From positions 102,396-166,395 of the forward strand of contig OY969565.1 in NCBI GenBank assembly GCA_963701105.1: 64,000 nucleotides of DNA, in the 5' to 3' direction. The notes beneath the pieces were generated by a model. The model had not been told where the DNA came from. It ran no database searches and saw nothing but the letters and a program-made list of their open reading frames with translations. This stretch comes from an uncultured Actinomycetota bacterium (GTDB lineage: Bacteria; Actinomycetota; Thermoleophilia; RBG-16-64-13). A program made the translations under genes and the position numbers. Below are positions 11,801 to 53,904 of this stretch, piece after piece. Numbering within the stretch: position 1 is the stretch's first letter; each line of letters starts with the position of its first letter.

Positions 11801-12454
11801 GATTTCACCAAGGACGAACTCTTGCGGTTGGAGAAGGAGACGCTCGGCATCTTCCTCACCTCTCATCCCTTACGCGACCTGCGCCGCCAGATCCGCGACG
11901 AAGCCGAACACATGGTGGGCGAGTTGAGTGGCCTGAGCGACGGCCAGATCACAACGATCATCGGCATGGTGGCCCGTGTCAAGAAGTTGGCCACCAAGTC
12001 AGGCGACCAGATGGCTTTCGTGATCATCCAGGGGATCGAGGACTCGATCGAACTCACCTGTTTCCCCAAGTTGTACTCCGACTCGCGCGACCTGCTGGTG
12101 GAGGATCGCTTGGTCAAGATCAAGGGTCGGGTGGAGCGGCGCGAGGAGAGCGAGGCGAAGTTCATACCCTTCACCATCGAGCGCTTCATACCGAAGACGG
12201 GCACGGAACCCGTGTGCATCAAGTTGGACGCCGTCAACCTCCAGCGCACCATCCTGGACGATCTCAAGTCCATCCTGGCCAACTTCCCGGGGCCGTGCCC
12301 GGTCGAGTTGCACCTCGACACCGAGCAGGGCCGCGTGCGCATGCAGTGCGGCAGGAACTACCAGGTGGATCCGCAGACCAGTCTGTTCGCCGAACTCCGG
12401 GTACTGCTCGGCGAAGCCGGCGTCTTCCGCTACGATCCGGCGCTGACCGCCTAG
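8861..12454 (+). CDS. dnaE: DNA polymerase III subunit alpha
   Basis: 1197 aa. PHP domain FCHLHVHSDFSALDG, then polymerase core, OB fold and C-terminal region. Exact start uncertain (GTG 8861 or ATG 8900). Confidence 0.95.
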   Translation: MARHVPTESPSVPMAGAPHQPSTRGTEQSVESSKATSEPAGRASFCHLHVHSDFSALDGACKIEDLVAQAVRNGMPAVAVTDHGVLSGAVQLYQKAKAAGVKPIIGLEAYVVEDRFRKETGHREERWHLTLLARDDAGYRNLLGLSSKAFLEGYYGKPRADYELLREHAEGLICLSGCPTGRLSKALEQGRDRDADLEIARLVDIFGRENVYIEIQITGIDELAHVPALLAELAARVDLPLVATNDIHYLRASDAAAHDALLCVQTGARLGEEKRMRFSSEEFYFKTEAEMLEAFRDYPEAVSNTVLVAERCNVSMDFDRILLPQYTVPEGFDGEPAYLRHLCEEGLTRRYRGSPSPEVLERLEMELRVIEEMGFPPYFLIVWDFVSFAKQSGIPVGPGRGSAAGSLVSYLLGITDLDPLEYDLLFERFLNPARISMPDIDIDFSVEGREKVIDYVAQKYGRDRVAQIATFGTIKARQAIRDAARVMDVPYNVADRIAKLIPEGPKATLDDCMREKQDLRIEYDKNDGDDTVRRVVDVARTLEGLIRQDSIHAAGVVISDKPLTDYLPLMQKGDAEVVTQVPMGDVEKLGLLKMDFLGLRNLDVLAGAEVIIREAGHPEFDLEALPLDDMRTYEMLAAGDSEGVFQFESSGMREALREVGPTRFEDLIALVALYRPGPMEYIPQYARNKRNPEGIKFPDERLEPILRPTYGVAIYQEQLMEIAKRIGGFSPAEADDLRKGIGKKIRAVLDRLEPQFRAGALAGGTKKPVVDHLWSLMEKAGDYSFNKSHAACYALIAYRTAYLKANFPVEYMAALISSVMNTKDKVPYYVGVANDMGIEVLPPDVNESALDFRVVEGRIRFGLNAVKNVGEGAIRLIIAARESGGPFRDIFDFCERVDPGVVNKRALESLIKAGGLDSTGSSRKGMLHVLAQAMANGQKRLADDAAGQGSIFDLLGSSDGLAREASAGSERAQPVPIPEEDFTKDELLRLEKETLGIFLTSHPLRDLRRQIRDEAEHMVGELSGLSDGQITTIIGMVARVKKLATKSGDQMAFVIIQGIEDSIELTCFPKLYSDSRDLLVEDRLVKIKGRVERREESEAKFIPFTIERFIPKTGTEPVCIKLDAVNLQRTILDDLKSILANFPGPCPVELHLDTEQGRVRMQCGRNYQVDPQTSLFAELRVLLGEAGVFRYDPALTA

Positions 12455-29389: not shown

Positions 29390-30598
29390 ATGGAGCGGTA
29401 TCTACTGAAGGAAAACATATGGTGGGTGGGGGCGATCGACTGGAACTGCCGTGACTTCCATGGTTACGAGACACCACGAGGCACCACCTACAATTCGTAC
29501 CTGATCACCGATCAGAAGACCGTCTTGGTCGACGGGGTCCGCTCGGGCTTCGGCTCGGAAACGCTGCGGCGCATCAACAGCTGTTGCGACCCGCGTGGAA
29601 TCGACTACTTGGTCATCAATCACGTGGAGATGGATCACTCCGGGGCCATCCCGGGACTCGTCCGCGAGATGTCGCCGGTCAAGATCTTCTGCTCCAAACG
29701 GGCGAAAGACGCACTCGCTATCCTTTATGCCGAGGAAGGCTTCGGGGAGTGGGATATCGAGGTGGTGGCCACGGGCGACGAGATCTCACTCGGCACCTAC
29801 ACGCTCACCTTCCTGGAAGTACCCATGCTTCATTGGCCGGACAGCATGCTTACCTACATCAAAGAGGCCAAGGTGCTACTGGCCAACGACGGCTTCGGCC
29901 AGCACTTGGCCACATCGAAGCGATTCGCCGACGAGGTCGATCTGTCCGTGGCGATGGATGAGGCGGCCAAGTACTACGCCAACATCCTCATGCCTTTCGG
30001 TGCCCAGGTGCAGAAACTAGTGAAGACGGTGGGCGAGATGGGTCTGGAACTGGATGTCATCGCCCCCAGCCACGGAGTCATCTGGCGGCGTCCGCAGGAC
30101 GTGCAGGCCATCATCCAGTCATACGTCGATTGGAGCTCCTTCAAGGCGGAGCCGTCGGTGGCCTTGATCTTCGACACCATGTGGCATTCGACGGAGAAGA
30201 TGACGCGGGCCATCGAAGACGGCGTGGCGCAAGAGGGAGTCGCCTGCTCGGTCATCAAGCTCAGCAAGACCCCGCTGGCGGACGCCATTCAGACCATACA
30301 GGCCTGCCGCGGCTTCTTCGTGGGCACTCCCACGCTCAACAACACCATGTTGCCGTCGGTAGGTGCGTTCATGACCTACATCAAGGGGCTCCGTCCCAAG
30401 CAGCGCGTGACGGGTGCTTACGGTTCCTTCGGCTGGGGCGGCGGCGGCGTGAAGCAGGTAGACGCCGGGCTGCGCGAGCTTGGGCTCGAGGTGGTCGATC
30501 CGCTCGAGTTCAAGTACGTGCCCTCGAGCGCGGATCTGGCCGCCTGTGAAGAATACGGGCGCGAGATCGCCCGCCGCGTCAAGGCCTGGGAGGCCTGA
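29390..30598 (+). CDS. FprA-type flavodiiron protein (A-type flavoprotein)
   Basis: 402 aa. Metallo-beta-lactamase-like diiron domain (NSYLI, INHVEMDHSGA) plus a C-terminal flavodoxin-like domain. Confidence 0.9.
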   Translation: MERYLLKENIWWVGAIDWNCRDFHGYETPRGTTYNSYLITDQKTVLVDGVRSGFGSETLRRINSCCDPRGIDYLVINHVEMDHSGAIPGLVREMSPVKIFCSKRAKDALAILYAEEGFGEWDIEVVATGDEISLGTYTLTFLEVPMLHWPDSMLTYIKEAKVLLANDGFGQHLATSKRFADEVDLSVAMDEAAKYYANILMPFGAQVQKLVKTVGEMGLELDVIAPSHGVIWRRPQDVQAIIQSYVDWSSFKAEPSVALIFDTMWHSTEKMTRAIEDGVAQEGVACSVIKLSKTPLADAIQTIQACRGFFVGTPTLNNTMLPSVGAFMTYIKGLRPKQRVTGAYGSFGWGGGGVKQVDAGLRELGLEVVDPLEFKYVPSSADLAACEEYGREIARRVKAWEA

Positions 30599-32141: not shown

Positions 32142-32314
32142 GCAGGTAGTCTAGCCTATGGTGACCGTCCGCACAAGGGTTTTGTGTGTGGATATGCACG
32201 TAACCTCGCGCGCAGGAGTGGCGCACCCCGGCCGTGGGCGTCGCTTTGGGTCTACTGGTACAATGGCTCCGCTGCTGGCGAAGGCCGCGAACGGTGCATG
32301 GAAGGAGTCATGGG

Positions 32315-33673
32315 ATGGCGAAGTACGTGATCGTCGGGAACGGTGTCACAGGTACACGGGCCGCAGAAGTGATCAGGCGCACGGATGAGTCGGCCGACGT
32401 GACCATCCTCACGGAAGAGCCGCACCCGTTCTATCGCCGTCCCCAGTTGGCGGACTTCGCCTCCGGCGACATCGGTGAGGCGCGTATGTGGGCCCGCAAG
32501 ACCTCCTTCTACGACGATAACCGGCTGGATCTGAGGCTCTCGACGAAGGTCGTGGGCCTAGATGTCGATGCGCACACGCTTGCGCTGGCCGACGGAGGCT
32601 CCGTCCCCTACGACCGGCTGTTGGTGGCCACGGGACGCGACGTCACCTCGGCGGGGCTATCGGGCGGCGACCTCGCCGGCGTCAACCATTTCAAGACCCT
32701 GGACGAAGCTCGGGCGATCCGCGACCTTGATGGCTCCGGCAAGACGGGGGTGGTGTTCGGCAACGGCATGGTCGCCCTGGAGTTGGTGCGCGCCCTTACC
32801 GCGTCCGGCTTCTCGACCACCTATCTTGTCCCCACCGATAGCCTCTGGCCGGAGGTGCTCGACAAGGATGCAGCGGACATAGCCCTCAGTCGCCTGCATG
32901 CGGCGGGCGCGCGGGTGGTCTTCGGCGCCGGGATCGAGACGGCGCGCTCCTCCGACGGGTGCGCCGGAGAGGTCGTCCTCGCTGGTGGGGATGTGCTGCG
33001 CGCCGACGTGTTGGGCCTCTGCTCGGGATACACTCCCGCCATCGGCTTTCTGCCCGACGGCGGTGCCGGCTTGGTTGCGGGCGCCGGGTTCGCAAGCCCG
33101 TGGGCCGATGTGTTCGTGGCCGGCGACGTGACGGTCGACGCCGGGAAGAACTACTTCAACTGGCTGCGTTCGTGGCGGCAGGGAGCAGCGGCCGGAACCC
33201 TCATGGCAGGCGGCGCCGGGGCTGACGAGCCGGCTGCCATAGACACCTTGAACATGCAGGTCCTCGGTCTCAGTCTCGTGACGCTGGGGCGTACCATCGC
33301 CCCCTACCGCTCGGGCTATTCCGAGATGCGCGGGGATTACCCGTACGGGGAGTTCTACAAGAAGTTGGTCTTCTCATCTGACGACGTGCTGGTGGGGGCA
33401 CTGCTGCTCGGCAATGTGGCAGAAGCCGCGGCTCTCGAGCAGGCCATCCGCGCGGGGACGAAGAAGGCCGATCTCCCCGATGACCTGCTCCACCAGATGT
33501 TCGACGTGACCTACAAGACGACGTACGTGGGTGTGCAGTGTCCGGTGTGCCGTCACGAGATGCAGTTGGCGAAAGGTGCCGTGGCAGGCGACCTGGTGAC
33601 GTGCCCGGTGTGCGGCACTGATTTCAACCTCGTGCAGGGCGACGTGGGCTTCAAAGCCCGCATCGCCAGGTGA
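32315..33673 (+). CDS. NAD(P)/FAD-dependent oxidoreductase (pyridine nucleotide-disulfide oxidoreductase fold) with C-terminal CxxC...CxxC zinc-ribbon/rubredoxin-like tail
   Basis: ATG 32315 after GAAGGAG. KYVIVGNGVTGTRAAE (FAD GxGxxG), GVVFGNGMVALE (NAD GxGxxA) and a C-terminal QCPVCRHEMQL...TCPVCGTDF. Confidence 0.8.
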   Translation: MAKYVIVGNGVTGTRAAEVIRRTDESADVTILTEEPHPFYRRPQLADFASGDIGEARMWARKTSFYDDNRLDLRLSTKVVGLDVDAHTLALADGGSVPYDRLLVATGRDVTSAGLSGGDLAGVNHFKTLDEARAIRDLDGSGKTGVVFGNGMVALELVRALTASGFSTTYLVPTDSLWPEVLDKDAADIALSRLHAAGARVVFGAGIETARSSDGCAGEVVLAGGDVLRADVLGLCSGYTPAIGFLPDGGAGLVAGAGFASPWADVFVAGDVTVDAGKNYFNWLRSWRQGAAAGTLMAGGAGADEPAAIDTLNMQVLGLSLVTLGRTIAPYRSGYSEMRGDYPYGEFYKKLVFSSDDVLVGALLLGNVAEAAALEQAIRAGTKKADLPDDLLHQMFDVTYKTTYVGVQCPVCRHEMQLAKGAVAGDLVTCPVCGTDFNLVQGDVGFKARIAR

Positions 33674-42335: not shown

Positions 42336-42706
42336 CGTTCCGTCTGCTTCTGGACAGCAGCTGCAGCTGCTTCTCTGTCGTCGAACAGCCGGAAACCCTG
42401 ATCCACCTGGAGCCCCACTATCTCGAAGAGTCTGCGCACGTTCGCATTCGGGTTGACGGCCGCCAGCCAGCCTTCGTCACGCAGCCGACGGACGGTGGAT
42501 AGCAGTACCGAGATTCCTCCGGAGTCGATGTAGGTGACGTCGCTGAGGTCAAGTAGGATCGTCTTCGCCCCCTCGTCGAGGATGGGATCCAGTTCTGCCT
42601 GGAGGGTCCCCGAACTCCCGTGGTCGATCTCTCCGCTCACAATGACCAACGGCAGGCCGTCCAGACTCTCGGTCGAAACCAGCATCTCACTCCTTCTGTA
42701 GCCCAC
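42332..42706 (-). CDS. STAS domain anti-sigma-factor antagonist
   Basis: 124 aa. ILLDLSDVTYIDSGGISVLL carries the phosphorylatable Ser motif. Confidence 0.85.
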   Translation of the reverse strand: MGYRRSEMLVSTESLDGLPLVIVSGEIDHGSSGTLQAELDPILDEGAKTILLDLSDVTYIDSGGISVLLSTVRRLRDEGWLAAVNPNANVRRLFEIVGLQVDQGFRLFDDREAAAAAVQKQTER

Positions 42707-42800
42707 TCCCCCGCAACGACCCGCTTGGGCCGCGTCATTCGGACTGTCTATTTCCCGGACGGTGTGAGTCCAAACTCGACACCATCGGTACGTAAGATAT

Positions 42801-43964
42801 TCAATCTGTAAGGTGTTGCACGGTGGTCAGGGCGTAGCCCTCGTTCAGCAGCCAATCGATGACCGTGGGTAGAGCTGCGACCGTTTGCGATCTGTCGCCC
42901 CCACCATCGTGCATCAGTATCACGGCTCCGGGGCGGACCGCCGCCTGCACGCGCGACACGATGGAGGATGCCTCGCGGATCTTCCAATCGAGCGTGTCCA
43001 CATCCCACAGCACCAATCGTTGCCCGAGCGCGCTCGCCTGTTCCGCGACGGTCGTGTTATAGGCGCCGTAGGGGGGCCGCAGGAAGCGGGTGCCGCCAAG
43101 CGTCTGCTCGGCACGGGAGATCTCGGACTTGATGGCCTCTGGGCTGAGCTTGGTGAGGTCGGCGTGGCTCCACGAATGGTTCTCGACCTCGTGCCCGGCA
43201 TTGCGGGCGGTGCCGATCATCCCGGGCCGGCCGGCGGCGACGTTGCCCACCCAGAAGAAGGTGGCGGAGACGCCCTTCTCGGCCAGCACCGCCAAGATCT
43301 GGGGAGTGTAGGTGCTGGGGCCGTCGTCGAAGGTCAAAGCGACTGTTTTTTGGCCGGCCGTCACCCCGGGACTGCGCCGCAACACCGCGTCCACGGGTTG
43401 GCGGGTGACGAACTCCGCCACCTTGCGATTCGTCGTGTCTCCCACGAACGTCTCGCGCTCGCCGTCGGAGCCCTTCTGTACCAAGGCAACCACGACCCCG
43501 CTGCCTTCCGAGCGCGACTCGTGGGGGATGGCGGCGGTCTCTCTGACTAAGCGTTCGAAGCGGTCGCCTCCGCGCCGGGTGGTTATCACCGACCCGTCGA
43601 GGAGGGCCAGATCGAGCGGGGCCACCGATGAATCCACCTCGACCGTACCCGGGCCGCCCCCGCCGAGAACGATCACGTCGCCGGCCACGTCGAGCTTCGC
43701 GCCTTGCGCCGGGGCGACGTGGCGCGCCTCGGCCACCTGTGCCACCGTCGTCCCCGGGCCCACCATCACGGGCGTGCCGTCGACGAGCAAGAATCGGGCC
43801 GAGCCCAGGCCCGGCGCCGGCCACGCGACGGTCAGGATCAGGGCCAGCACGATGGCGGTGATCAGCACTCTGAGGCCGGCGCGCCACCAGGCGCCCGACC
43901 TCGGCGCCCGGCGGCGCCGCGCGTCTTCGCCGGCGGCGCGGCGGTATGCCGGGTCCGTGGTCAC
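42801..43964 (-). CDS. membrane-anchored polysaccharide deacetylase (NodB homology domain) with N-terminal DUF348-like region
   Basis: 387 aa. TM anchor, VALTFDDGPSTYTPQIL, HEVENHSWSH and ILMHDGGGDR. GTG 43964 overlaps the nuoI-fusion stop (GTGA). Confidence 0.85.
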   Translation of the reverse strand: MTTDPAYRRAAGEDARRRRAPRSGAWWRAGLRVLITAIVLALILTVAWPAPGLGSARFLLVDGTPVMVGPGTTVAQVAEARHVAPAQGAKLDVAGDVIVLGGGGPGTVEVDSSVAPLDLALLDGSVITTRRGGDRFERLVRETAAIPHESRSEGSGVVVALVQKGSDGERETFVGDTTNRKVAEFVTRQPVDAVLRRSPGVTAGQKTVALTFDDGPSTYTPQILAVLAEKGVSATFFWVGNVAAGRPGMIGTARNAGHEVENHSWSHADLTKLSPEAIKSEISRAEQTLGGTRFLRPPYGAYNTTVAEQASALGQRLVLWDVDTLDWKIREASSIVSRVQAAVRPGAVILMHDGGGDRSQTVAALPTVIDWLLNEGYALTTVQHLTD

Positions 43965-45931
43965 GGAAGGCCGTCCTTGTTCGGCATCTCGTCGGGCTTG
44001 TCGAAAGGCCGGAGCATCTTCTCCCGGTCGTAGAAGAGATCGCGTCGTCCTCTCTCGGCATAGTCGAAGTCAGCGGCCAAGCTCAACGTCTGAGTGGGGC
44101 ACGCGTCCTGGCAGAATCCGCAGAAGCAGCACCACTCCATCATGAAGTCGTAACGCTCTACGCGACGCTCGAACCCGGTGTCGTAGCCGGCCACGTCGAT
44201 GCAGTTGTCGGGGCACACCCGTGCGCACAGGGTGCATGCCACGCACACGTGCGTCTGGCAGCGCATGCAGCGTATGGCTTCACGGTGTCCGTCACCTTTG
44301 GGCCATCCCAGTTCCACCTGTTCACCCGTGCGGACGCGGGTACGGGGGTTCGATTCGGGCATGTGGACCCGGCGGCCACCCGGCCCAAAATGCTCGAAAT
44401 CAGGCGGGTTGGGAGCATAGGGTTGCTGTAGGTAGTACTCAGGCGGGTGTACCGGCGGGCGCCGATCTTCCGTGAGGGGCAGCCCCTGGATATGACGGTG
44501 CACGGACAGCGCCGTCTCGTGCGCTTGGCCGATGGCGATGATGATGGTGCGGGGACCGGTGGCGAGGTCGCCCGCGAGGAAGACTCCGTCGAGCGCCGTG
44601 GCTCCGGTGCTCTGGTCGCACACGGGCCGACCCAGTGCGTCGAACTCCACGCCCGATCCCTGCAGGAAACCCACGTCCAGCCTCTGGCCGACGGCGAAGA
44701 TCACACTCTGGCAGGCGATCTCCGTGACCTCATCGGAGTACTTGAGATTCCACTTGCCGCTGGCATCGAAACGCGAGGCCACCTTCCGGAGGCGTATGCC
44801 CGCCACCTTGCCCTTCTCCACGAGGATCTCGTCTGGTCCCCACTCGGACAGGAGCACGACGCCCTCCTCGATCGCGCCTGAGACCTCCACGTCCTGAGCG
44901 GGCATGCCCTCTCGATCCTCCACGTGCGCCTGCAGGGACAGGCTGGCTCCGCACCTGAGAGCACTGCGTGAGCAATCGCATCCCACATCGCCTCCGCCGA
45001 TGATCACCGCCTCCGGACCCACCTTCGGATCCTCGCCCATGCAGTAGGCGTAGAGGAAGTCGATCGCCGACCATACGCCTTCGGCCTCGTGGCCGGGTAT
45101 GGGGAGTATGCGGCCGCCCGAGTAACCGACGGCGACGACCACCGCGTCATGCTCGGCTCGGAGTCGTTCGAAGGTAATGTCGACACCCACCTTGACCCCG
45201 AACTTGAACTCGACGCCCAGTTCGGCGATGTCGGCGATCTCTCGGGCCACGACACTCCGGTCGAGACGGTACAGGGGCACGCTCGTGACCAGCAACCCCC
45301 CAGGCAGCCGTTCACGTTCATAGACGGTGACGCGGTAGCCCATCTGGACTAAGTCGTAAGCGGCAGCGATGCCGGCCGGCCCCGCGCCGATGACGGCCAC
45401 GTGCTCCTGGCGATGCACGAGGTTCTCGAGGTGTCCCGGGAAGCGCGCCTCGCGATCGTAGACTTCGTAGCAATCCCGGTGGAGTTGTCTGATGGCGATG
45501 GGGTCGTCGAGATAGGATCGACGGCACACGTCCTCGCACGGGTTGTTGCACACATAGCCGAGGACCGCGGGCAGGACGTTCCGGCGGCGCACGAGGTTAT
45601 AGGCCTCGATGTATCGCCCGGCAGCGACCAGAGCGTTCTGGCCGCGGGCGTCCACGTTGGCCGGGCAGCCGCCCTGGCACGGGGCGATCCGGCGTTGCTC
45701 GTGCAACTCGGTCATGAGGTCGTTGAATTCGAGCGGTTCGGCATCGGTCACGGGGGGCGGTTCGTCGTCCATGACGCCACGCAGACGCAGTGGTCCGCGC
45801 CAGCGGGGCGAAAGCTGCGCCGGTTCCTTCGGATACATGCGGGTGACCGGAGGGGAGACCATCTGTTTCAGGGTCTCCATGTGGCCGCGGGCCATACCCA
45901 CCCAAGGTTTCAGCAGGCTTTCCCAGCTCAC
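43961..45931 (-). CDS. nuoI: NuoI (complex I 2x[4Fe-4S] subunit) carrying an internal GltD-like NAD(P)H/FAD oxidoreductase insertion
   Basis: 656 aa from GTG 45931, which overlaps the nuoD stop. The N-terminal 50 aa, VSWESLLKPWVGMARGHMETLKQMVSPPVTRMYPKEPAQLSPRWRGPLRL, are NuoI-like. The C-terminal ~104 aa, CMRC..CVACTLCARVCP...YDFMMEWCCFCGFCQDACPTQTLSLAADFDYAERGRRDLFYDREKML, are the NuoI ferredoxin core. Between them (about nt 44297-45775) lies PCQGGCPANVD...GYVCNNPCEDVC (GltD Fe-S region), VAVIGAGPAGIAAAYDL (FAD), VIIGGGDVGCDCS (NAD(P)H) and VFLAGDLATGPRTII. Confidence 0.8.
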   Translation of the reverse strand: MSWESLLKPWVGMARGHMETLKQMVSPPVTRMYPKEPAQLSPRWRGPLRLRGVMDDEPPPVTDAEPLEFNDLMTELHEQRRIAPCQGGCPANVDARGQNALVAAGRYIEAYNLVRRRNVLPAVLGYVCNNPCEDVCRRSYLDDPIAIRQLHRDCYEVYDREARFPGHLENLVHRQEHVAVIGAGPAGIAAAYDLVQMGYRVTVYERERLPGGLLVTSVPLYRLDRSVVAREIADIAELGVEFKFGVKVGVDITFERLRAEHDAVVVAVGYSGGRILPIPGHEAEGVWSAIDFLYAYCMGEDPKVGPEAVIIGGGDVGCDCSRSALRCGASLSLQAHVEDREGMPAQDVEVSGAIEEGVVLLSEWGPDEILVEKGKVAGIRLRKVASRFDASGKWNLKYSDEVTEIACQSVIFAVGQRLDVGFLQGSGVEFDALGRPVCDQSTGATALDGVFLAGDLATGPRTIIIAIGQAHETALSVHRHIQGLPLTEDRRPPVHPPEYYLQQPYAPNPPDFEHFGPGGRRVHMPESNPRTRVRTGEQVELGWPKGDGHREAIRCMRCQTHVCVACTLCARVCPDNCIDVAGYDTGFERRVERYDFMMEWCCFCGFCQDACPTQTLSLAADFDYAERGRRDLFYDREKMLRPFDKPDEMPNKDGLP

Positions 45932-47118
45932 CTGTCCACGTCTCCCATCACCGGGTCGAGAGTCCCCACGATGTTGATGAGGTCCGACAAGGTGTATCCC
46001 ACCGCCAGGGCTGGCAGCATGGCTACGTTGTGGAACGAGGCTCCCCGCCACTTCATGCGGTAGGGCTTCGGACCCCCGTCGCTCACCAGGTAGCACCCGA
46101 TCTCTCCTCGGGGCGACTCCAGGCGGGCGTAGGCTTCCCCAGGCGCCGGTGTGGGGATGCGCGGGATGCGATCTGCCAGGAAAGGGCCTTCGGGGATATC
46201 GTCGATGGCCTGTTGAATGATCTTGGCGCTCTCGATCATCTCGTCGACACGGACTTCGGTGCGGTCGTAGACGTCGCCGGTGGTCCCCACGGGTACGTCG
46301 AAGTCGAAACGGTCGTAGATGGAGTAGGGCATGTCTTTGCGCAGATCCCAGCGGTATCCGGTGGCCCGCAGCACCGGGCCCTGCGCTCCGATGCGCAGGG
46401 CCTCCTCGGGCGTCAAGGTGCTTATGCCCTTCGAGCGCTCGTGCCAGATGTAGTTGTCGTGGAAGAGCCTGCGGTACGAGGGGAACTCGTCGATCACGGA
46501 GCGCAGCGCGCCCCTCACTCGTTCGAACCAGCCCGGAGGCGCGTCATAGATGACGCCGCCCAGCCTCATGTACACGTAGGTGAGGCGCGCTCCGCAGATC
46601 TCCTCCAAGAGACGCACCAGGCGTTCGCGGGCCTCGAAGCACCAGAGGAAGTAGGTCGGGGCGCCTGTGTCGAGACCGAGGGCTCCGATGGAGATCAGGT
46701 GACTCGCCATGCGGTTGATCTCGGCCACGATCACACGCAGATATTCTGCGCGCTCCGGAACGGTGATGCCCAGGAGACGCTCGGCCGCCAAGCAGTACAC
46801 CCAATCGTTGTGCATGGCCGCCAGATAGTCGGCAGTGCGGTCAGTGAAAGCGATGACCTGGGGATAGGTGCGGTTTTCGACGATCTTCTCCAAGGAGCGG
46901 TGCATATAGCCGATGCGTACGTCCAGGCCCGCGACCTTCTCGCCGTCGAGACGGGTGACAAGCCGCATGACGCCGTGGGTGCCCGGGTGGTGGGGGCCGA
47001 TGTTGATGAGGAAATCCTGGACGTCGTCCGCAGCCTGGGAATCCCCCTCGGGAACCGCCCTTTCGGGGATATCGGGAGGCATCTGCCGGTTGGGTCCCAT
47101 CGGGGTCTCCATAGGCAT
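45928..47118 (-). CDS. nuoD: NADH-quinone oxidoreductase subunit D
   Basis: ATG 47118 (MPMETPMG...) overlaps the frame-corrected nuoC stop. INIGPHHPGTHGVMRL, ESPRGEIGCY and C-terminal DPVMGDVDR. The NiFe-hydrogenase Cys ligands are absent, so this is NuoD-type. Confidence 0.9.
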   Translation of the reverse strand: MPMETPMGPNRQMPPDIPERAVPEGDSQAADDVQDFLINIGPHHPGTHGVMRLVTRLDGEKVAGLDVRIGYMHRSLEKIVENRTYPQVIAFTDRTADYLAAMHNDWVYCLAAERLLGITVPERAEYLRVIVAEINRMASHLISIGALGLDTGAPTYFLWCFEARERLVRLLEEICGARLTYVYMRLGGVIYDAPPGWFERVRGALRSVIDEFPSYRRLFHDNYIWHERSKGISTLTPEEALRIGAQGPVLRATGYRWDLRKDMPYSIYDRFDFDVPVGTTGDVYDRTEVRVDEMIESAKIIQQAIDDIPEGPFLADRIPRIPTPAPGEAYARLESPRGEIGCYLVSDGGPKPYRMKWRGASFHNVAMLPALAVGYTLSDLINIVGTLDPVMGDVDR

Positions 47119-47664
47119 CAGAAGTACTGGGGCCGGGATATCGCCACTCGGTCCACGTAGTCTTTCCGCAGCGGGTGCCCTTCCCAGCCGTCCGGGTTCA
47201 GGATGCGTCGCAGATCCGGATGGCCGGCAAAAGACGAGGCCGAACTGGTCGTATGTCTCCCGCTCCTCCCAATCGGCCAGCGCCCACAGATCCGTCACGG
47301 TGGCGACTTCCTCCCCGTCACGAGCCACGCGTGTGCTCAGTCGCACCTGCAGTCGGTTCTCGATGCCGTAGGCCTGCAACGTGAGCGTCAGGTGGTGGCG
47401 CCAATCCACGCAGGTGATGAAATCGAGCCGATCGATCCCCTGTTCCCGCACTATCTCCGCGGCGTGCCGATAACCTGAGAGCTGCACCCGCAGGCACACC
47501 ACGCCGTCGTCGCCGTCGTGGTAGCCGATCAGGCCCGCGCCCAACTGCGTGCGGAGGGACTCGAGCAGCCTCTCCCGGCCGGCCTGAGTGGGGGAAGGCG
47601 GGACCGTCCCTGGCGGCATGACAGTGGGGTCGCCGGCTGCGGGTGGCGTGGCTGGTCCGCTCAC
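47118..47664 (-). pseudogene. nuoC: NADH-quinone oxidoreductase subunit C with 1-nt insertion in a T4 run (plus-strand AAAA 47229-47232)
   Basis: The track shows a single 578-aa NuoC-NuoD ORF. After ...[15 protein letters not shown] it reads [19 protein letters not shown]..., which is not NuoC-like. Skipping one T gives [36 protein letters not shown], the canonical NuoC C-terminus, ending at TGA 47118-47120 and overlapping the nuoD ATG. Confidence 0.75.
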
Positions 47665-48128
47665 GTCCAGTCCACCTCCGCCTTCTCGGTGATGATGCGC
47701 TCGAGTTCAAGGATACCGTCGATGAGCGCCTCCGGGCGGGGCGGGCAGCCCGACACGTAGACGTCTACCGGCACGATCTGGTCTACGCCCTTCACCACGC
47801 TGTACCCGTCGTGGTAGTAGAGACTGCCGGCCGTGGCGCAGTTGCCCATGGCGATGACCCAGCGGGGTTCCGGCATCTGCCGGTAGACGCGTTCTACCAT
47901 GCCGGCCACCTTGTAGGTGACCGTCCCCGAGACGATGAGCAGATCCGATTGCCTTGGTGACCCACGTGGCATGACGCCGAAGCGGTCGAGGTCGTAACGA
48001 GAAGCGTTCGCAGCCATCATCTCGATGGCGCAGCAGGCGAGGCCGAACATCATCTGCCACAATGATCGAGAACGAGCCAAGGAGATGGCGTGCTGGGCCG
48101 CCCCCAAGATGACCCCGGGGGCCACCAA
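47661..48128 (-). CDS. nuoB: NADH-quinone oxidoreductase subunit B
   Basis: 155 aa. [22 protein letters not shown] and GCPPRPE (N2 cluster ligands). Stop overlaps the nuoC GTG. Confidence 0.9.
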
Positions 48129-48418
48129 GAGCGGGCCGAACTCCCGATGCTCGGGTCGATCGAGCGGGACCAGGACCCCCCGGTCGATCCAGGGACGGGC
48201 GGGTATAGAGGGCGGACCGGTGCTGTTGGATTCTGCTATGTTGCCAACCTCCGTGGGCCGGGAGTCGTCTCGGGGCCGCGTTCGACCTCCGCAGGGTGCA
48301 GTGCCCGTTCAGGGCGCGGACGAAACCCGGGCCCTGCGGCCGTGACGTTGATTATGCCGTCGGCCATCAGGGTAAGCAACCCATGGTCGTCGAAGCGGGG
48401 AGGGTGGTATTGGCCGGG

Positions 48419-48778
48419 ATGTATCTTTCGGACGTGGTGTTCTTGCTGGGGTTCGCCCTTGCCGTTGTCTCCCTTCCAATACTGACACTCGCCTTTTTCA
48501 GCCTCCTCCGCCCGCGCCACGCCGAGTCGTTGAAGGGTGAGGCCTACGAGTCGGGTATGCCCCAGGCGAGCATCCCGCGCCGCCCCTTCCACATGGCCTA
48601 CTACAACTTCTCACTGGTCTTCATCGTGTTCGAGGTCGAGACGTTGCTGATCTTCGCCATCGCCCCGGTCCTGCGCGACGCGGGCTGGTGGGGACTGGCC
48701 GAAGTAGCGGTGTTCGTCGTCATGGTGACTCTCGGCCTTGCCTACGCCTGGCGTAAAGGAGCTCTGGTCTGGAAGTGA
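48419..48778 (+). CDS. nuoA: NADH-quinone oxidoreductase subunit A
   Basis: MYLSDVVFLLGFALAVVSLPILT...YESGMP...FIVFEVETLLIF...WRKGALVW. Start ATG 48419, or GTG 48404. Transcribed divergently from nuoB. Confidence 0.85.
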   Translation: MYLSDVVFLLGFALAVVSLPILTLAFFSLLRPRHAESLKGEAYESGMPQASIPRRPFHMAYYNFSLVFIVFEVETLLIFAIAPVLRDAGWWGLAEVAVFVVMVTLGLAYAWRKGALVWK

Positions 48779-49737
48779 GTCATCTGCTCACCTTCGCGCT
48801 CGGCCTTCTGCTGGGAGTGGTCGCATTCACCATCGTGGGCGCCCTGACTGCGATCTTGGTGCTCACAGAACGCAAGGTGGGCGCACGCATCCAGGGCCGC
48901 GTGGGACCCATGCACACCGGCCCGCAGGGTTCGCTGCAGACCATCGCCGACATGGTCAAACTGGTGATGAAGGAGGATGTGCGCCCGGCGCGGGCAGATG
49001 CCGTGGCGTTCAGAGTGGGCCCGTTGCTGGTGGCGGTGCCTGCCATCCTGTCCCTGGCCGTCATCCCCTTCGGCGGCCCCCTCATCATGCGCGACCTGAA
49101 CGTCGGCGTGCTCTACTTCCTCGCCGTTCCGGGAGTCACGGTGGTGGGCCTCCTTCTCGCCGGGTGGGCGAGCTACGACAACTACTCGTTCCTCGGCGGC
49201 CTGCGTTCATCGGCACAGTTCATCAGCTACGAGATCCCCCGCGGCCTGGCCGTAGTCACCGTGGTGATGCTGGCGGGCTCTTTGAGTACGGTCGACCTTC
49301 TGGAGGCTCAGAGCCGTGTCCCCTACATCCTGCTGCTGCCGCTCAGTTTCCTCATATACGCGATCACGTCGCTGGCGGAGGTCAACCGGATCCCGTTCGA
49401 CATCCCCGAGGCCGAATCCGAGTTGGTGGCCGGCTACCACACCGAATACTCGGGGTTCCGCTGGGCCCTCTTCTTCCTGGCCGAGTATGCCGGACTGTTC
49501 GCCGCCTCGGCCTTCGGCGCCTTGCTGTTCTTCGGCGGCGGGAACGGCCCGCTGCTGCCTCCGGTGGTCTGGCTCCTCCTCAAGACGTCCGCGCTCATGT
49601 TCGTGGGCATCTGGATCCGTTTCACACTCCCTCGATTCCGCGCTGATCAACTCATGAGGCTGGCTTGGAAGTTCTTTCTTCCGCTTTCGCTCGTGAACCT
49701 CGTGATCGCCGCCCTCGTGATGAAGGCAGTGGCGTGA
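48775..49737 (+). CDS. nuoH: NADH-quinone oxidoreductase subunit H
   Basis: 320 aa. LTERKVGARIQGRVGP, GSLQTIADMVKL and EAESELVAGYHTEYSG. Confidence 0.95.
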   Translation: MSHLLTFALGLLLGVVAFTIVGALTAILVLTERKVGARIQGRVGPMHTGPQGSLQTIADMVKLVMKEDVRPARADAVAFRVGPLLVAVPAILSLAVIPFGGPLIMRDLNVGVLYFLAVPGVTVVGLLLAGWASYDNYSFLGGLRSSAQFISYEIPRGLAVVTVVMLAGSLSTVDLLEAQSRVPYILLLPLSFLIYAITSLAEVNRIPFDIPEAESELVAGYHTEYSGFRWALFFLAEYAGLFAASAFGALLFFGGGNGPLLPPVVWLLLKTSALMFVGIWIRFTLPRFRADQLMRLAWKFFLPLSLVNLVIAALVMKAVA

Positions 49738-50225
49738 GTCTCCAGGACTCGCTCTTCGTCGGCTTCGGGCTGATCGCGGTGGCCGGGGCGCTGTACGCCG
49801 TGCTCACGCGTTCTTTGCTGCGCGCCATCGTGGCCCTCGGTGCTTTCCTCACGGCCGTGGCCGGGGAGTTCTACCTGCTGTCCGCCGACTTCGTCGCCGT
49901 CGTGCAGATCTTCGTGTACGTGGGAGGCGTGCTGGTCCTCATGCTGTTCGCGCTGATGCTCTCCGCTTCCGGAGTGCGTCATCCTCTTGCCGCCATCGAT
50001 CGCCCGGGGCTGGGGGCCGTACTCGCGTACGTCATCGGTGGCGGGCTGGTGTGGGCCTCGTTGACCGCCGGCACCTTCGTGCCGGCCGAGTTGCCCGAGG
50101 ATGCGGTGGGCGCCCTGGGGCGGGCCCTGCTGGGAGCGCAACTCGGCCCCTTCGAACTCATAGGCGTGATACTCCTCGCCTCGGTCATCGCCGCGCTCTC
50201 GATCGCGCGCAGGGAGCAGCCATGA
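49734..50225 (+). CDS. nuoJ: NADH-quinone oxidoreductase subunit J
   Basis: GTG 49734 overlaps the nuoH stop. FVAVVQIFVYVGGVLVLMLF. Confidence 0.85.
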   Translation: MSLQDSLFVGFGLIAVAGALYAVLTRSLLRAIVALGAFLTAVAGEFYLLSADFVAVVQIFVYVGGVLVLMLFALMLSASGVRHPLAAIDRPGLGAVLAYVIGGGLVWASLTAGTFVPAELPEDAVGALGRALLGAQLGPFELIGVILLASVIAALSIARREQP

Positions 50226-50524
50226 CCACCGCGGCCCTGGTGCTCTCCTCCGTACTCTTTGCCGTCGGGGTGTTCGGCGTGCTGACGCGCAGGAACGCCA
50301 TAACCCTGCTGGTGTCGGTGGAGATCATGATGAACGCCGCGAACATCAATTTCGTGGCGTTCTCGCGCGTCCACGAACCCGCGGCGATGACCGGGCAGGT
50401 CTTCGCGCTGCTCGGTATAGGCATCGCCGCCTGCGAGGCCGCCGTGGGGTTGGCCTTGATCTTGGCGGTGCGCCGCCGCTTCGGCGGCACCGACGTCCAT
50501 TCCATCGATCTGTTGAAGGGCTGA
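50222..50524 (+). CDS. nuoK: NADH-quinone oxidoreductase subunit K
   Basis: 100 aa. ATG 50222 overlaps the nuoJ stop. LLVSVEIMMNAANINFV and AACEAAVGLAL. Confidence 0.9.
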   Translation: MTTAALVLSSVLFAVGVFGVLTRRNAITLLVSVEIMMNAANINFVAFSRVHEPAAMTGQVFALLGIGIAACEAAVGLALILAVRRRFGGTDVHSIDLLKG

Positions 50525-50528
50525 CCGG

Positions 50529-52445
50529 GTGTCCGCCGTGCTCGTAGCCGTCTTCGCCGTTCCCCTGCTCGTGTGCCTGGCCCTGTTCGTGGGAGCGGCG
50601 GTCGCGTCCCGTCGGGGAGAGGGCCCCACACGCGAGTGGGGTCGCCTGGCCGGATGGATATCGTCCGCCGGCGCGCTCACCGCTCTCATCCTGGCGGTCA
50701 TCGCGTTCCTCTCCTACCGCGCGGGCACCGACGTATCGGTGAGCGCCGTATGGTTCCACGTGGGAGATCTGGAGGTACCGTTCAGCCTTAGACTCGACGG
50801 TCTGCAGGCGGTCATGGCCGTGGTGGTGGCCGCGGTCGCCTTCCTCGTGCACCTCTACTCCGTGGGATACATGCACGGCGACCGCGACGTCTCCGTGTAC
50901 TTCGCGGAGTTGTCCTTGTTCACAGCGGCCATGCTGCTCCTGGTGCTCTCGTCCAACTTCTTCTTGCTCTACCTGGCCTGGGAACTCGTCGGCGCGAGTT
51001 CCTACCTGCTGATCTCCTTCTACTTCGAGCGCCCGGCGGCCGCCGCCGCGGGCAAGAAGGCCTTTCTCACTACCAGGATCGGCGATCTGGGCCTGCTCAT
51101 CGCTCTGTTTTCCATCGTGTGGCAGACGGGCTCGCTGGACTACGACACGGTGTTCGCCTGGGCCGCGACTCCCGGCTTCCAGGGCGCGTGGGCGGTGGCC
51201 ATCCCCTTGTTGGTGTTCGCCGGTGCCGTGGGCAAGTCGGCGCAGTTCCCGCTGCACGTGTGGCTCCCGGACGCCATGGAGGGTCCCACGCCGGTCTCGG
51301 CCCTCATCCACGCCGCTACCATGGTGGCGGCCGGCGTGTATCTGGTGGCCCGAGCCTACCCTCTGTTCGAAGCGGCCCCCGCAGCCCTCGATGTGGTCGC
51401 CTACATAGGCGCCTTCACGGCGCTGATGTCGGCGACGGTGGCCGTCACCCAGAGCGACATCAAGAAGGTGCTCGCGTACTCCACCATCAGTCAACTGGGT
51501 TTCATGATGGCGGCGCTGGGCGCAGGCGCTCCGGAAGCGGGGGTCTTTCACCTCTTCACGCACGCGTGGTTCAAGGCCCTCCTGTTCCTGGGCGCGGGCA
51601 GCGTCATACACGCCACCGGGAGGCAGACGGTGCAGGAATTGGGGGGACTGGTGAGGACCATGCCGGTGACCGCGTGGACCTTTGCGGTGGGCGGCCTGGC
51701 CCTCGCCGGCATCCCGCCCTTCGCCGGCTTCTGGAGCAAGGAAGAGGTGCTCGGGTCGTTACTCGCACATCAGCCGGTGCTCGCCGTGGCCCTGCTGCTG
51801 GCGAGCTTCCTCACCGCCGTCTATATCGGGCGGCTGTTCCTCCTTGTGTTCTTGGGCCGGCCCCGTCTCGCGGATGACGCCCGCGCGAGGGGGCATGAGT
51901 CACCCTGGGTCATGACCGTGCCGCTGCTGGTGTTGGCCACGGCCTCGCTGGTCTCCGGCTTCTTCGGAGCCGGCTTCCTCGGGCAGCGCCTACAACACTT
52001 CCTCTCCATCGGGGCGGCCGGGGCCGAGGCTCAGGGCACCCCCGTGTGGTTCACAGCCCTGGCCATCACCGTGGGGTTCGCCGGTCTCGCCGCGGCGTGG
52101 CTCGGCTACGGGCGGTCCCCGGAGCGAGCGGGCGATGCCCTCGGTTTCGACATCCAACTGCGGGAGACACTGGGTCGCGCATACGGTGTCGTCGAGCGTG
52201 CCTACCTGGTGAACGAGTTCTACGGGCGGACGGTGGTGGGTCCGTTGGTGGCCGCGGGCCGTTTCCTGTGGTCGGGAGTCGACGGCCGGGTGATAGACCG
52301 CGCCGTCGACGGTCTGGCGCGCGTCATTCCCGGCCTCGGCGGCCTCGTCCGCCGCGTGCAGTCGGGTGAGGTCCGGGATTACCTCGCGGCGGTGGCTCTC
52401 GGCGTGATCCTGCTGGTGGCCCTGGCTCTGGGAGGGCTGAGGTGA
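50529..52445 (+). CDS. nuoL: NADH-quinone oxidoreductase subunit L
   Basis: 638 aa. WELVGASSYLLISF, GKSAQFPLHVWLPDAMEGPTPVSALIHAATMV, and a C-terminal lateral-helix region. Confidence 0.9.
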   Translation: MSAVLVAVFAVPLLVCLALFVGAAVASRRGEGPTREWGRLAGWISSAGALTALILAVIAFLSYRAGTDVSVSAVWFHVGDLEVPFSLRLDGLQAVMAVVVAAVAFLVHLYSVGYMHGDRDVSVYFAELSLFTAAMLLLVLSSNFFLLYLAWELVGASSYLLISFYFERPAAAAAGKKAFLTTRIGDLGLLIALFSIVWQTGSLDYDTVFAWAATPGFQGAWAVAIPLLVFAGAVGKSAQFPLHVWLPDAMEGPTPVSALIHAATMVAAGVYLVARAYPLFEAAPAALDVVAYIGAFTALMSATVAVTQSDIKKVLAYSTISQLGFMMAALGAGAPEAGVFHLFTHAWFKALLFLGAGSVIHATGRQTVQELGGLVRTMPVTAWTFAVGGLALAGIPPFAGFWSKEEVLGSLLAHQPVLAVALLLASFLTAVYIGRLFLLVFLGRPRLADDARARGHESPWVMTVPLLVLATASLVSGFFGAGFLGQRLQHFLSIGAAGAEAQGTPVWFTALAITVGFAGLAAAWLGYGRSPERAGDALGFDIQLRETLGRAYGVVERAYLVNEFYGRTVVGPLVAAGRFLWSGVDGRVIDRAVDGLARVIPGLGGLVRRVQSGEVRDYLAAVALGVILLVALALGGLR

Positions 52446-53904
52446 TCGGCCTACTCCTGCTCCTGCCCAAGGCGACCATCGGCATCGCCGCGCTGCTTGC
52501 CCTCCTGCTCGATTCGATCACGGGCGGGCGGGCGCGCCGCCGCGTGGTCCTCGCGGTCGTGGTGCTGCTCTCGGTCGGAGCGGTGGTTGCGATCGTAGGC
52601 ATAGGCCGGACCGGAGTGTTCTTGGAAGGTACGCTCGTGGTCGATCGCTTCTCCATCTTCGCCGACATCGTGCTCTTGGTCCTCGGCGCCGTAGTGGCGC
52701 TCGCGGCGCTTAACGGGGTGGGGTCGGAGAAAGAAGCCGGCGACTTCTACACCCTGTTCTTCCTCTCTCTTGCCGGAGCCTCGGTCCTCGCGTCCGCCGG
52801 CAGCCTCATCATGGTGTTCCTCGCCATCGAGCTCGCCCTCATCCCCACCTTCGCCCTCGTGGCGTTCAGGGCCGAAGACCGCCGAAGCTTCGAAGCGGCC
52901 CTCAAGTACTTCCTGCTCAGCGTCTTCGCGTCGGCCATCATGCTCTTCGGTTTCTCGCTCGTGTACGCCGCCGTGGGCACCGTCGCCCTCCCTCTTCCGG
53001 GCGACGCGCCTCCTCCGGCCTCCTCTTGGCCGGGATAGGACTGACGCTGGCCGGTTTCGGGTTCAAGATCGCCGCCTTTCCCTTCCACCAGTGGCTGCCC
53101 GACGCGTTCGAGGTGTCGCATCCGGAGGTAGCCGCCTTCCTTGCCGTGGGGCCGAAACTGGCGGCCATCGTGGCCCTCGTCCGGATCCTGGAGGGTCTGG
53201 CGGCCCAGAACGGTGCCTGGACGTCGGCCGTCGCCGCCATCGCGGTCCTGAGCATGGTGTGGGGGAATCTTGGCGCGTTCCGACAGCGGCGTCTCCCCAG
53301 ACTGCTCGCATACTCCGCGATCGCGCACGCCGGCTACGCGCTCGTGGGCCTTGCCGGGGGCGGCCCTCGGGGCATGGAGGGTGCCGTGGTGTACTTCGCG
53401 GCCTACAGCGCGGCTGCCGTGGGGGCCTTCCTGGTCGTAGGGATCCTGTCCCGTGGAGGCATCGGCGACAGCCTGGGCGACGTAGTCGGGCTGGGGCGGA
53501 GACGCCCCCTGGTGGCGGCCGCCATGACCGTCTTCATGATCTCACTGGTGGGCGTGCCTCTGTTCGCCGGCTTCTGGGGGAAGTTCTCGGTGTTCCTCGG
53601 GGCGGTGGAGGGTGGAGTGGTGTGGTTGGCGGTGGTGGGCGTGCTGAACAGCGCCATGTCCTTCGGATACTACGGTAACGTGATCCGCATCATGTACCTC
53701 GAGGGTGGCACCGACGCGGCGTCTGCGCGGTCCGCCGCCGGCGTGCCGGCCGGCGGGGTCTCGGCGCACGGTCAGACAGTCGTGGCCGGCGCTGAAGGTT
53801 GGGGCATCCGCGTCGCGCTGGGAGTCGCCGTAGCGCTCACGATGCTGCTGGGGATCGTGCCGGGAATACTCTTCGGAGCCCTGGGAGTGAGCGCGGGTCC
53901 TTGA
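52442..53904 (+). pseudogene. nuoN: NADH-quinone oxidoreductase subunit N, split by an apparent -1 frameshift around 52990-53030
   Basis: Track ORFs 52442-53038 and 53026-53904 are the N- and C-terminal parts of one NuoN: ...FLAIELALIPTFALVAF... then ...FGFKIAAFPFHQWLPDAFEVSHPEVAAFLAV.... The second frame reads ...SSGLLLAGIGLTLAGF upstream of its nominal start. The junction is a C/T-rich repetitive stretch (CCCTCCCTCTTCC...CCTCCTCC). Confidence 0.75.

Follow-up and report, generated by a model that had tools for sequence, protein, structure and literature searches.

A NuoI subunit carrying a permuted GltD/NfnB-type cassette in nuoEFG-less complex I operons of uncultured Actinomycetota

The window analysed here is a stretch of 64,000 nucleotides from an uncultured Actinomycetota bacterium (assembly GCA_963701105.1, contig OY969565.1, positions 102,396 to 166,395). 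It contains, at 43961..45931 on the minus strand, a gene of 656 codons and a stop that encodes the complex I subunit NuoI with a flavoprotein cassette of the GltD/NfnB type inside it. Our preferred reading, to which we give a probability of roughly two in three, is that this composite protein serves as the NuoI of an NADH:menaquinone proton pump without NuoE, NuoF and NuoG, and that the cassette is its built-in NADH dehydrogenase. According to this reading, which is based on sequence comparisons and a structural model, a complete NAD(P)H dehydrogenase cassette would have been spliced into a surface loop of NuoI, before the first cluster-binding cysteine.

Architecture and distribution of the composite NuoI

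Both ends of the protein correspond to NuoI. The N-terminal segment (residues 1-52; 45776..45931, minus strand) consists of an amphipathic helix and the motif T30..Y33-P34..R43-x-R45-G46-x-L48, and aligns to the N-termini of NuoI/TYKY proteins. Its residues T30, Y33, P34, R43, R45, G46 and L48 are invariant in 119 full-length homologues of 39-95% identity; conservation was assessed on this alignment and on one of 24 sequences. Residues 561-656 (43964..44251, minus strand) comprise the 2x[4Fe-4S] core and C-terminal tail of NuoI, with a Pfam match to Fer4_7 at 563-614 and two cysteine motifs (C563, C566, C569, C573-P574 and C601, C604, C607, C611-P612) in which 8/8 cysteines are invariant. The top PDB matches of this part are NuoI/TYKY subunits (E-value 1e-20), well above other ferredoxins. 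The NCBIfam NuoI model TIGR01971 finds the native protein in two separate stretches, with 96.5 bits against a cut-off of 113.05. When residues 1-56 are joined directly to residues 559-656, the resulting construct of 154 residues reaches 118 bits in a single stretch covering profile positions 3-121 of 121, and it is collinear with solved NuoI/TYKY structures over residues 12-143, with one 1-residue gap at the joint (E-value 3e-27). The flanks are therefore the two halves of a normal NuoI, and the cut falls in the loop that leads from the R-x-R-G-x-L-x-L strand to the first cluster cysteine. An earlier note, written from the letters of the window alone, had already described them as canonical NuoI, and the profile test bears this out, for NuoI specifically and not for a generic ferredoxin. 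In the second motif, W-C-C-F-C-G-F-C, the first ligand is followed by an additional cysteine (C602) that is shared by most of the family; canonical NuoI carries Ile or Val there.

The cassette lies between these halves and is bordered by two linkers. The N-side linker (residues 53-79; 45695..45775, minus strand) is variable in sequence and fairly constant in length, and the GltD/NfnB-like body that follows (residues 80-482; 44486..45694, minus strand) is defined by Fer4_20 at residues 83-156, Pyr_redox_2 at 177-470 (E-value 1.3e-26) and PDB alignments to NfnB, StnC and NfnA. It carries the Fe-S ligands C85, C89, C128, C132, C136 and H151, a flavin adenine dinucleotide (FAD) site, G182-x-G184-x-x-G187, and an NAD(P)H site, G312-G313-G314; G182, G184, G187, G312 and G314 are invariant in the homologues. 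The closest solved relatives of the cassette are NfnA of the Bfu-type NfnABC (9bov_A, 9n5u_A) and StnC (8oh5_C), with E-values from 1e-66 to 1e-75. The C-side linker (residues 483-520; 44372..44485, minus strand) is variable in the alignment and forms a low-confidence loop in the model described below (predicted local distance difference test, pLDDT, 56-78).

The body begins at PCQGGCP and lacks the upstream CxxC that is customary for Fer4_20. The 'N-terminal' element of the GltD Fe-S domain is found behind the flavoprotein domains, at residues 521-560 (44252..44371, minus strand), where it contains R554-C555-x-R557-C558. Residues 521-563 (RVHMPESNPRTRVRTGEQVELGWPKGDGHREAIRCMRCQTHVC) align to residues 8-50 of Pyrococcus furiosus NfnB (5jca_L), and the element also aligns to the segment that follows the flavoprotein part in StnC and in 9bov_A; the latter alignments continue through query residue 569. 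Judged by these alignments the cassette is circularly permuted, as in StnC and NfnA, and because a permuted cassette has both of its ends near the distal cluster it can be inserted into another protein. C85, C89, C128, C132 and C136 together with C555, C558 and H151 form a complete ligand set for two [4Fe-4S] clusters (seven cysteines and one other residue), and C555-x-x-C558 ends five residues before C563, the first ligand of the NuoI clusters. H151, an invariant His at the non-cysteine ligand position, aligns with K170 of StnC, which ligates the cluster next to FAD as seen by cryo-electron microscopy (PMC10482914), and with the Glu of 'LER' in NfnB. R222, equivalent to R201 of NfnB and R239 of StnC, is also invariant. 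The earlier note had proposed the insertion of a full GltD-like module: the module is indeed complete, with every cofactor motif kept in the 119 homologues, but 'GltD inserted' is a simplification, since the cassette is permuted. GltD itself was rejected as an identity (TIGR01317, 198 against 447; TIGR01318, 172 against 483; gltB is not nearby), and the likeness to GltD is one of fold only.

An AlphaFold2 model built on the 119-sequence alignment shows a single body with good confidence (mean pLDDT 88.1, predicted template modelling score 0.87) and has a helix at residues 3-25; it is weak only in the linker at 490-520, at the extreme C-terminus and in part of the N-terminal segment. In a Foldseek search of the PDB, StnC and two NfnA chains came out on top with 617-633 of the 656 columns aligned (query TM-score, TMq, 0.66-0.67), and at this coverage the match takes in the ferredoxin domain after the cassette. 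NfnB and GltD came next (target TM-score, TMt, 0.77-0.80), and the search of the PDB returned no solved structure with the architecture of the composite NuoI.

The reading frame from 45931 to 43961 is uninterrupted, as the earlier note had it; the gene was assigned to the minus strand, the plus-strand reading of the same interval being full of stops. Translation starts at a GTG at 45931 that overlaps the TGA stop of the preceding nuoCD gene as GTGA, with GGAGA 9 nt upstream, and the N-termini of the homologues agree with this start. The GTG at 46096, which would give the longest open reading frame (ORF), was discarded: it would overlap nuoCD by 170 nt, and the homologues begin at the coupled start. 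The two junctions that had been placed near 45775 and 44297 are correct and match residues ~52 and ~545. A recorded 1.34-Mb contig encodes an identical protein, MHB9150684.1 from a Thermoleophilia metagenome-assembled genome (MAG) is a cluster mate of the window protein, and a sister strain in a separate assembly (locus L086; 98.8% DNA identity) has the same intact 656-aa ORF with five substitutions. A scan of 42500-48900 yielded no promoter-like site and one terminator-like site, which lies inside the next gene and is no more than expected by chance.

A search of 5.8 billion proteins gave more than 120 matches covering 95-100% of the query. Matches of 64-95% identity belong to Thermoleophilia-type MAGs, matches of 39-50% mainly to Coriobacteriia MAGs, and the databases name them 'FAD-dependent oxidoreductase' (NCBI) or 'glutamate synthase beta subunit-like'. 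The 119 protein clusters with this architecture are drawn from NCBI, JGI, ENA and Logan assemblies and have identical junctions down to 39% identity; invariant among them are the N-terminal NuoI motif, seven cassette cysteines, H151, both glycine motifs, R222, E338 and the eight NuoI cysteines. When one genome per GTDB species was scanned, 34 loci had the full architecture. Nearly all carry Actinomycetota labels (Coriobacteriia, Anaerosomatales, 'Candidatus Geothermocultor' and unclassified Actinomycetes); the labels of a few MAGs (Eubacteriales, Elusimicrobia UBA5214) look doubtful. With the first 100 residues, which span the junction, as a profile-free query, only 19 clusters at 50% identity were matched among 1.84 billion representatives, and these include three more distant full-length members with the same motifs. 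One further match to this query, P0133 (619 aa), is a frame-shifted gene call and was left out. The family is, on this comparative evidence, real, strongly constrained and narrow. No cultured carrier was found among the names of cluster members or in the supplement of a paper on cultured Anaerosomatales. In the locus labelled Elusimicrobia UBA5214, several extra NuoL-like antiporter genes lie up- and downstream of the core operon.

Relatives of the cassette outside nuo operons match only residues ~83-579 and have neither NuoI flanks nor nuo neighbours. A side case is a 1394-residue ferredoxin-GltD-HdrA fusion of Deltaproteobacterium NaphS2 (L053:8788-12972), in which the permuted cassette, with the NADPH-type triplet YRR discussed below, stands beside MetF/MetV-like genes.

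Operon context and nucleotide preference

In the window the composite gene is the last of a minus-strand group, nuoB-nuoCD-nuoI, that is divergent from the plus-strand group nuoA-H-J-K-L-N. nuoCD (45928..47664, minus strand) is a fusion of NuoC and NuoD, matched by the NCBIfam models of both and translationally coupled to the composite gene, and nuoB (47661..48128, minus strand; NCBIfam NuoB E-value 3e-67, above cut-off) contains the CC...C...CP ligands of cluster N2. The membrane arm begins with nuoA (48296..48778), whose NCBIfam match starts at residue 42 and whose true start is probably further in, and continues with nuoH (48775..49737; E-value 4.6e-101, above cut-off), nuoJ (49665-50225), nuoK (50225-50524), nuoL (50529..52445; E-value 3.6e-193, above cut-off) and nuoN (52442..53904), all on the plus strand. 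nuoN is read in two frames, 52442-53038 and 53026-53904, because of a 1-nt deletion near 53006/53007. The sister strain has one extra T at this place ('GGCGACGTCGCC' vs 'GGCGACG-CGCC'), which restores the frame, and the frameshift is likely an assembly indel error; in the sister assembly other nuo genes are broken.

The nuo cluster of the window contains no nuoE, nuoF, nuoG or nuoM, and neither nuoE/nuoF/nuoG nor a canonical nuoI was found elsewhere in the 64 kb, the remainder of which consists of housekeeping and unrelated genes. The window Nuo proteins were mapped onto all fetched loci, and two layouts were seen. The Thermoleophilia-like group has the divergent arrangement B-C-D-I / A-H-J-K-L-N, and the Coriobacteriia-type group, including one complete 2.5-Mb genome, has the order A-B-C-D-H-I-J-K-L-M-N. 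The composite gene is the sole nuoI-like gene, at the nuoI position, in the 34 species-representative loci and in L001, L003 and L084. nuoEFG is absent from the operon in every locus examined; nuoD and nuoH are ~70 nt apart, which leaves no room for nuoEFG between them. That the composite protein could provide electron input in place of NuoEFG, as the earlier note had suggested, is thus supported by its constant occupation of the nuoI slot in a nuoEFG-less operon, the function itself being predicted from sequence.

The quinone end looks like that of a true complex I. The best match of NuoD is the complex I 49-kDa/Nqo4 subunit (E-value 1e-92), compared with 4.5e-63 for the MBS subunit 6u8y_L. 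Its HPGTHGV and DY motifs align with the quinone-site positions of Thermus Nqo4 at which His38 and Tyr87 bind the head group, its C-terminus reads GDVDR, and it has no NiFe cysteines.

The operons also differ in composition. The nuoC-nuoD fusion (a 578-residue ORF) occurs in the window and in L004, and the two genes are separate in the 66%-identical relatives L001 and L005 and in the Coriobacteriia-type operons. Thermoleophilia-type operons (window 48296-53904, L001, L004 and L005) encode two antiporter-like subunits, NuoL and one NuoN/M-like protein, without nuoM, and Coriobacteriia-type operons encode NuoL, NuoM and NuoN. One might speculate that one proton channel fewer would suit the smaller driving force from NADH to menaquinone.

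Some clues to the nucleotide come from one residue triplet. In NfnB this is Y310-R311-R312 (YRR), which binds NADPH by its 2'-phosphate; where DsrL enzymes lack YRR, they prefer NADH (PMC7596348). The aligned triplet of the window protein is H-V-E, with E338 in place of the second arginine. This glutamate is present in 119/119 full-length homologues, the second position of the triplet being Leu or Val, and the fetched Nuo-type loci read C/S/M/A/H-L/V-E with a single exception. Carboxylates at this Rossmann-fold position usually favour NADH and repel the 2'-phosphate. Since an invariant E338 replaces the YRR arginine, NADH is predicted to be a likelier substrate than NADPH. YRR is found in 40/46 of the non-Nuo cassette relatives, a set from which L046 was left out, as it had been mis-binned there and is actually Nuo-type. 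The triplet C-L-E also occurs in a minority of non-Nuo cassette proteins, namely L040, L041, L044 and L045 from Dehalococcoidia and L037, L038 and L043 from Desulfobacterales and other Deltaproteobacteria. These proteins are among the nearest non-Nuo relatives (33-38% identity over residues 79-579; nuo genes are not nearby), and the insert in NuoI could have come from their lineage.

Two other observations concern the rest of the window. A flavodiiron protein (beta-lactamase-like and flavodoxin domains; top NCBIfam match anaerobic NO reductase flavorubredoxin) and a NorW/ferredoxin-reductase-like Pyr_redox_2 protein are encoded close together at 29390-30598 (+) and 32234-33673 (+), a pair that suggests detoxification of O2/NO as is typical for anaerobes or microaerophiles. 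ARAGORN places a tRNA-Val (GAC) at 12189-12269 (-), opposite the dnaE ORF (8861-12454, +); it has no Rfam support, the Rfam scan of the window having given zero matches, and is probably a false positive.

Proposed electron path and competing explanations

In the proposed mechanism NADH would reduce the FAD of the cassette, and electrons would then pass singly through its two [4Fe-4S] clusters, the proximal one (three cysteines and His151) and the distal one (four cysteines, including C555 and C558). From there they would enter the NuoI cluster of C563/C566/C569/C611 (N6a) and continue through N6b and N2 in NuoB to menaquinone at the NuoD/NuoH site, with proton translocation via NuoH/A/J/K, NuoL and NuoN. 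The FAD is assumed to be a plain two-to-one-electron converter by analogy with StnC, whose FAD feeds a linear cluster chain and does not bifurcate (PMC10482914). In this manner the cassette would do in cis, with FAD and two clusters, the job that NuoE/NuoF/NuoG do with flavin mononucleotide (FMN) and six or seven clusters.

The identity of the receiving cluster can be approached through its protein environment. C555-x2-C558-x4-C563 is one contiguous peptide, which would make the distal cassette cluster and the motif-1 cluster of NuoI neighbours. In the 2x[4Fe-4S] ferredoxin fold, the stretch in front of each motif packs against the cluster whose ligands come from the other one. In Escherichia coli NuoI, Phe92, which sits seven residues ahead of the first cysteine of motif 2, belongs to the environment of N6a, and Leu48, Cys74 and Leu116 to that of N6b (PMC8357420); in Mycobacterium smegmatis, NuoI His42, equivalent to L48 of the window protein, contacts N6b (PMC10068793). 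Taken together, the fold rule and these two environments make N6a, which is fed by NuoG in canonical complex I, the most likely cluster to be ligated by the first three cysteines of motif 1.

Several points weigh against an NADH-oxidising pump of this kind. The nuoN frameshift, if real, could make the complex of this strain defective. A separate nuoEFG or a canonical nuoI may exist elsewhere in the genome, the absences recorded above covering the operons and the 64-kb window. One Nuo-type protein from 'unidentified bacterium isolate 10' (L030:4903-6798, 38% identity) has YRR, which may point to a switch of nucleotide preference inside the family. We infer the N6a assignment and the cluster-to-cluster distances, and likewise cofactor occupancy, NADH preference, the direction of electron flow and proton pumping, from sequence and known relatives. 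Finally, complex I is reversible, and the alternative that carries the most weight, though we consider it unlikely, is that the enzyme works backwards: proton-motive force would drive electrons from menaquinol, reduced by a membrane hydrogenase or formate dehydrogenase, to NAD(P)+, and anaerobic lithotrophs would in this way obtain NAD(P)H for their biosynthesis. Subsurface Coriobacteriia/Anaerosomatales make up many of the carriers; their cultured relatives have neither complex II nor complex III and use H2 or formate for growth (PMC9686372), and the related DsrL-1A is biased to NAD+ reduction (PMC7596348). On the other hand, no sequence feature sets the direction, and the window holds NADH-generating genes of a heterotrophic type (isocitrate/isopropylmalate dehydrogenase family, glycine cleavage, glycoside hydrolase). 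Slightly less probable again is an NADPH:menaquinone oxidoreductase whose cassette uses NADPH as NfnB, StnC and GltD do. The closest solved relatives bind NADPH (PMC10482914) and L030 has kept the corresponding triplet, but the glutamate at the second arginine is universal in the aligned homologues, and a Rossmann carboxylate normally favours NADH (established knowledge; PMC7596348).

The likeness of the cassette to NfnB, together with the invariant R222, also raises flavin bifurcation or confurcation, in which NAD(P)H oxidation would be coupled to the reduction of both menaquinone and a low-potential ferredoxin, or the reverse. We regard this as improbable: no operon encodes an NfnA-like [2Fe-2S]/FAD partner, hence there is no second electron branch; StnC has the same permutation and the conserved arginine, yet its FAD is not bifurcating (PMC10482914); and the two cassette clusters, which form the low-potential branch in NfnB, are the ones wired to NuoI. 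Just as little credit can be given to the idea that the product is a soluble GltD-ferredoxin oxidoreductase which merely resides in the nuo operon while ferredoxin feeds the complex, a donor that has been proposed for other NuoEFG-less enzymes as well. Among the NCBIfam GltD-type models, PRK12771 (GltD plus a C-terminal dicluster) does cover residues 78-619 with an E-value of 8.5e-121, and the authors of the Anaerosomatales genomes assumed a ferredoxin donor (PMC9686372). However, its score of 404 is below the cut-off of 516, invariance extends to the N-terminal anchor segment of NuoI and to its specific tail, and the non-Nuo relatives of the cassette lack exactly these flanks and the nuo neighbours. 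Moreover, no operon has another nuoI, so that N2 would be left without its N6a/N6b relay if the composite protein were not part of the complex. A chimeric assembly or read-through of neighbouring genes might be suspected from the indel errors of the source assembly, as in nuoN, and from the several broken nuo genes of the sister assembly. It is excluded by recurrence in independent assemblies: the same uninterrupted architecture, with identical junctions, is present in the 119 protein clusters and the 34 species-representative genomes, and the sister strain has the same ORF. The in-frame domain insertion proposed in the earlier note is therefore retained.

Relation to known systems and significance

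The closest structural counterparts of the composite NuoI are StnC of the Sporomusa ovata StnABC transhydrogenase and NfnA of the Bfu-type NfnABC. They have the same permuted cassette, with a body that starts at PCxxxCP and a CxxC after the flavoprotein domains, and in them too the cassette is located in an Fe-S subunit related to complex I, with a 2x[4Fe-4S] ferredoxin-like domain after it. Their host, however, is NuoG-like and part of a soluble, bifurcating transhydrogenase, whereas the host here is the NuoI of a predicted membrane proton pump. They have YRR (NADPH) and Lys170 where the present family has x-L-E and His151, and the composite NuoI is without their [2Fe-2S] and molybdopterin-like domains. 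The canonical NuoE/NuoF/NuoG module has the same predicted job, to take hydride from NADH at a flavin and pass single electrons to N6a, but it is of unrelated fold and distributes FMN and clusters N1a, N3, N1b, N4, N5 (and N7) over three subunits, as opposed to FAD and two [4Fe-4S] clusters in an insert of NuoI.

In terms of operon structure, the family resembles the NuoEFG-less '11-subunit' complex I-like enzymes (for example those of Desulfitobacterium and Chlorobi, cyanobacterial NDH-1 and archaeal Fpo), which share a nuo operon without the N-module and a complex-I-type Q-module and membrane arm. The electron donor of these enzymes is an acknowledged question (PMC11238625): it is separate (ferredoxin via NdhS/O/V; FpoF for F420H2) or unknown, in contrast to a predicted input module that is covalently part of NuoI. 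The window operon differs further in that it is without nuoM and has nuoC and nuoD fused.

The nearest published precedent is the gltD-related flavoprotein that replaces NuoI in the mbx-like operons of Thermotoga and proteobacteria (Degli Esposti 2015; PMC4758237), where a GltD-type NAD(P)-binding flavoprotein likewise stands at the place of NuoI; the comparison is made by description. When the C-terminal 174 aa were used as a query toward Thermotoga mbx-type proteins, the word index gave only six matches, which is uninformative. The mbx-like complexes are of the Mrp/Mbx type, contain NuoD homologues in which vestigial NiFe cysteines persist, and have been interpreted as ferredoxin:NAD(P)+ enzymes. 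The partners of the composite protein are NuoA/H/J/K/L/N, all with Nuo models as best NCBIfam matches, and a quinone-type NuoD, and this set therefore falls outside the definition of an mbx-like complex.

A paper on cultured Anaerosomatales gives the gene set as nuoNMLKJIHDCBA, remarks that NuoEFG is missing and proposes ferredoxin as the donor, with the unusual NuoI unmentioned (PMC9686372). No description of a Nuo-type NuoI with a GltD-like cassette was found in open-access papers and bioRxiv preprints. The impression of the earlier note that the architecture had not been described thus stands for the Nuo-type form, and must be qualified by two partial precedents, the gltD substitute of mbx-like operons (PMC4758237) and the cassette in the NuoG-like StnC (PMC10482914). 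Both components and the general idea have precedents; what appears undescribed is the combination, a FAD-based, probably NADH-specific input module on the NuoI of a true complex I in a group of Actinomycetota.

What, then, would this protein mean for the evolution of complex I? We hold the chances to be slightly better than even that an Actinomycetota lineage (the Thermoleophilia-like group, Coriobacteriia/Anaerosomatales and relatives) independently invented the NADH oxidation of complex I, as a pump of 9-11 genes with a five-cluster wire and without NuoE/F/G. The insert would then be a convergent second N-module, and the enzyme the smallest self-sufficient complex I known. If this is true, complex I acquired its NADH-oxidising function two times or more, from unrelated parts, and the GltD cassette in its permuted form can be seen as a portable 'NAD(P)H plug' that is found in NuoG-like, HdrA-like and now NuoI proteins. 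The family would also offer structural and mechanistic work a minimal, single-operon, FAD-based complex I, in some operons with two antiporter-like subunits, and it would correct metabolic reconstructions of subsurface Actinomycetota in which the protein is listed as 'FAD-dependent oxidoreductase' or complex I is scored as having no NADH site. For one lineage, the question of the missing donor would receive a concrete and testable answer inside the NuoI gene itself, in the form of a covalent flavin/NAD(H) module.

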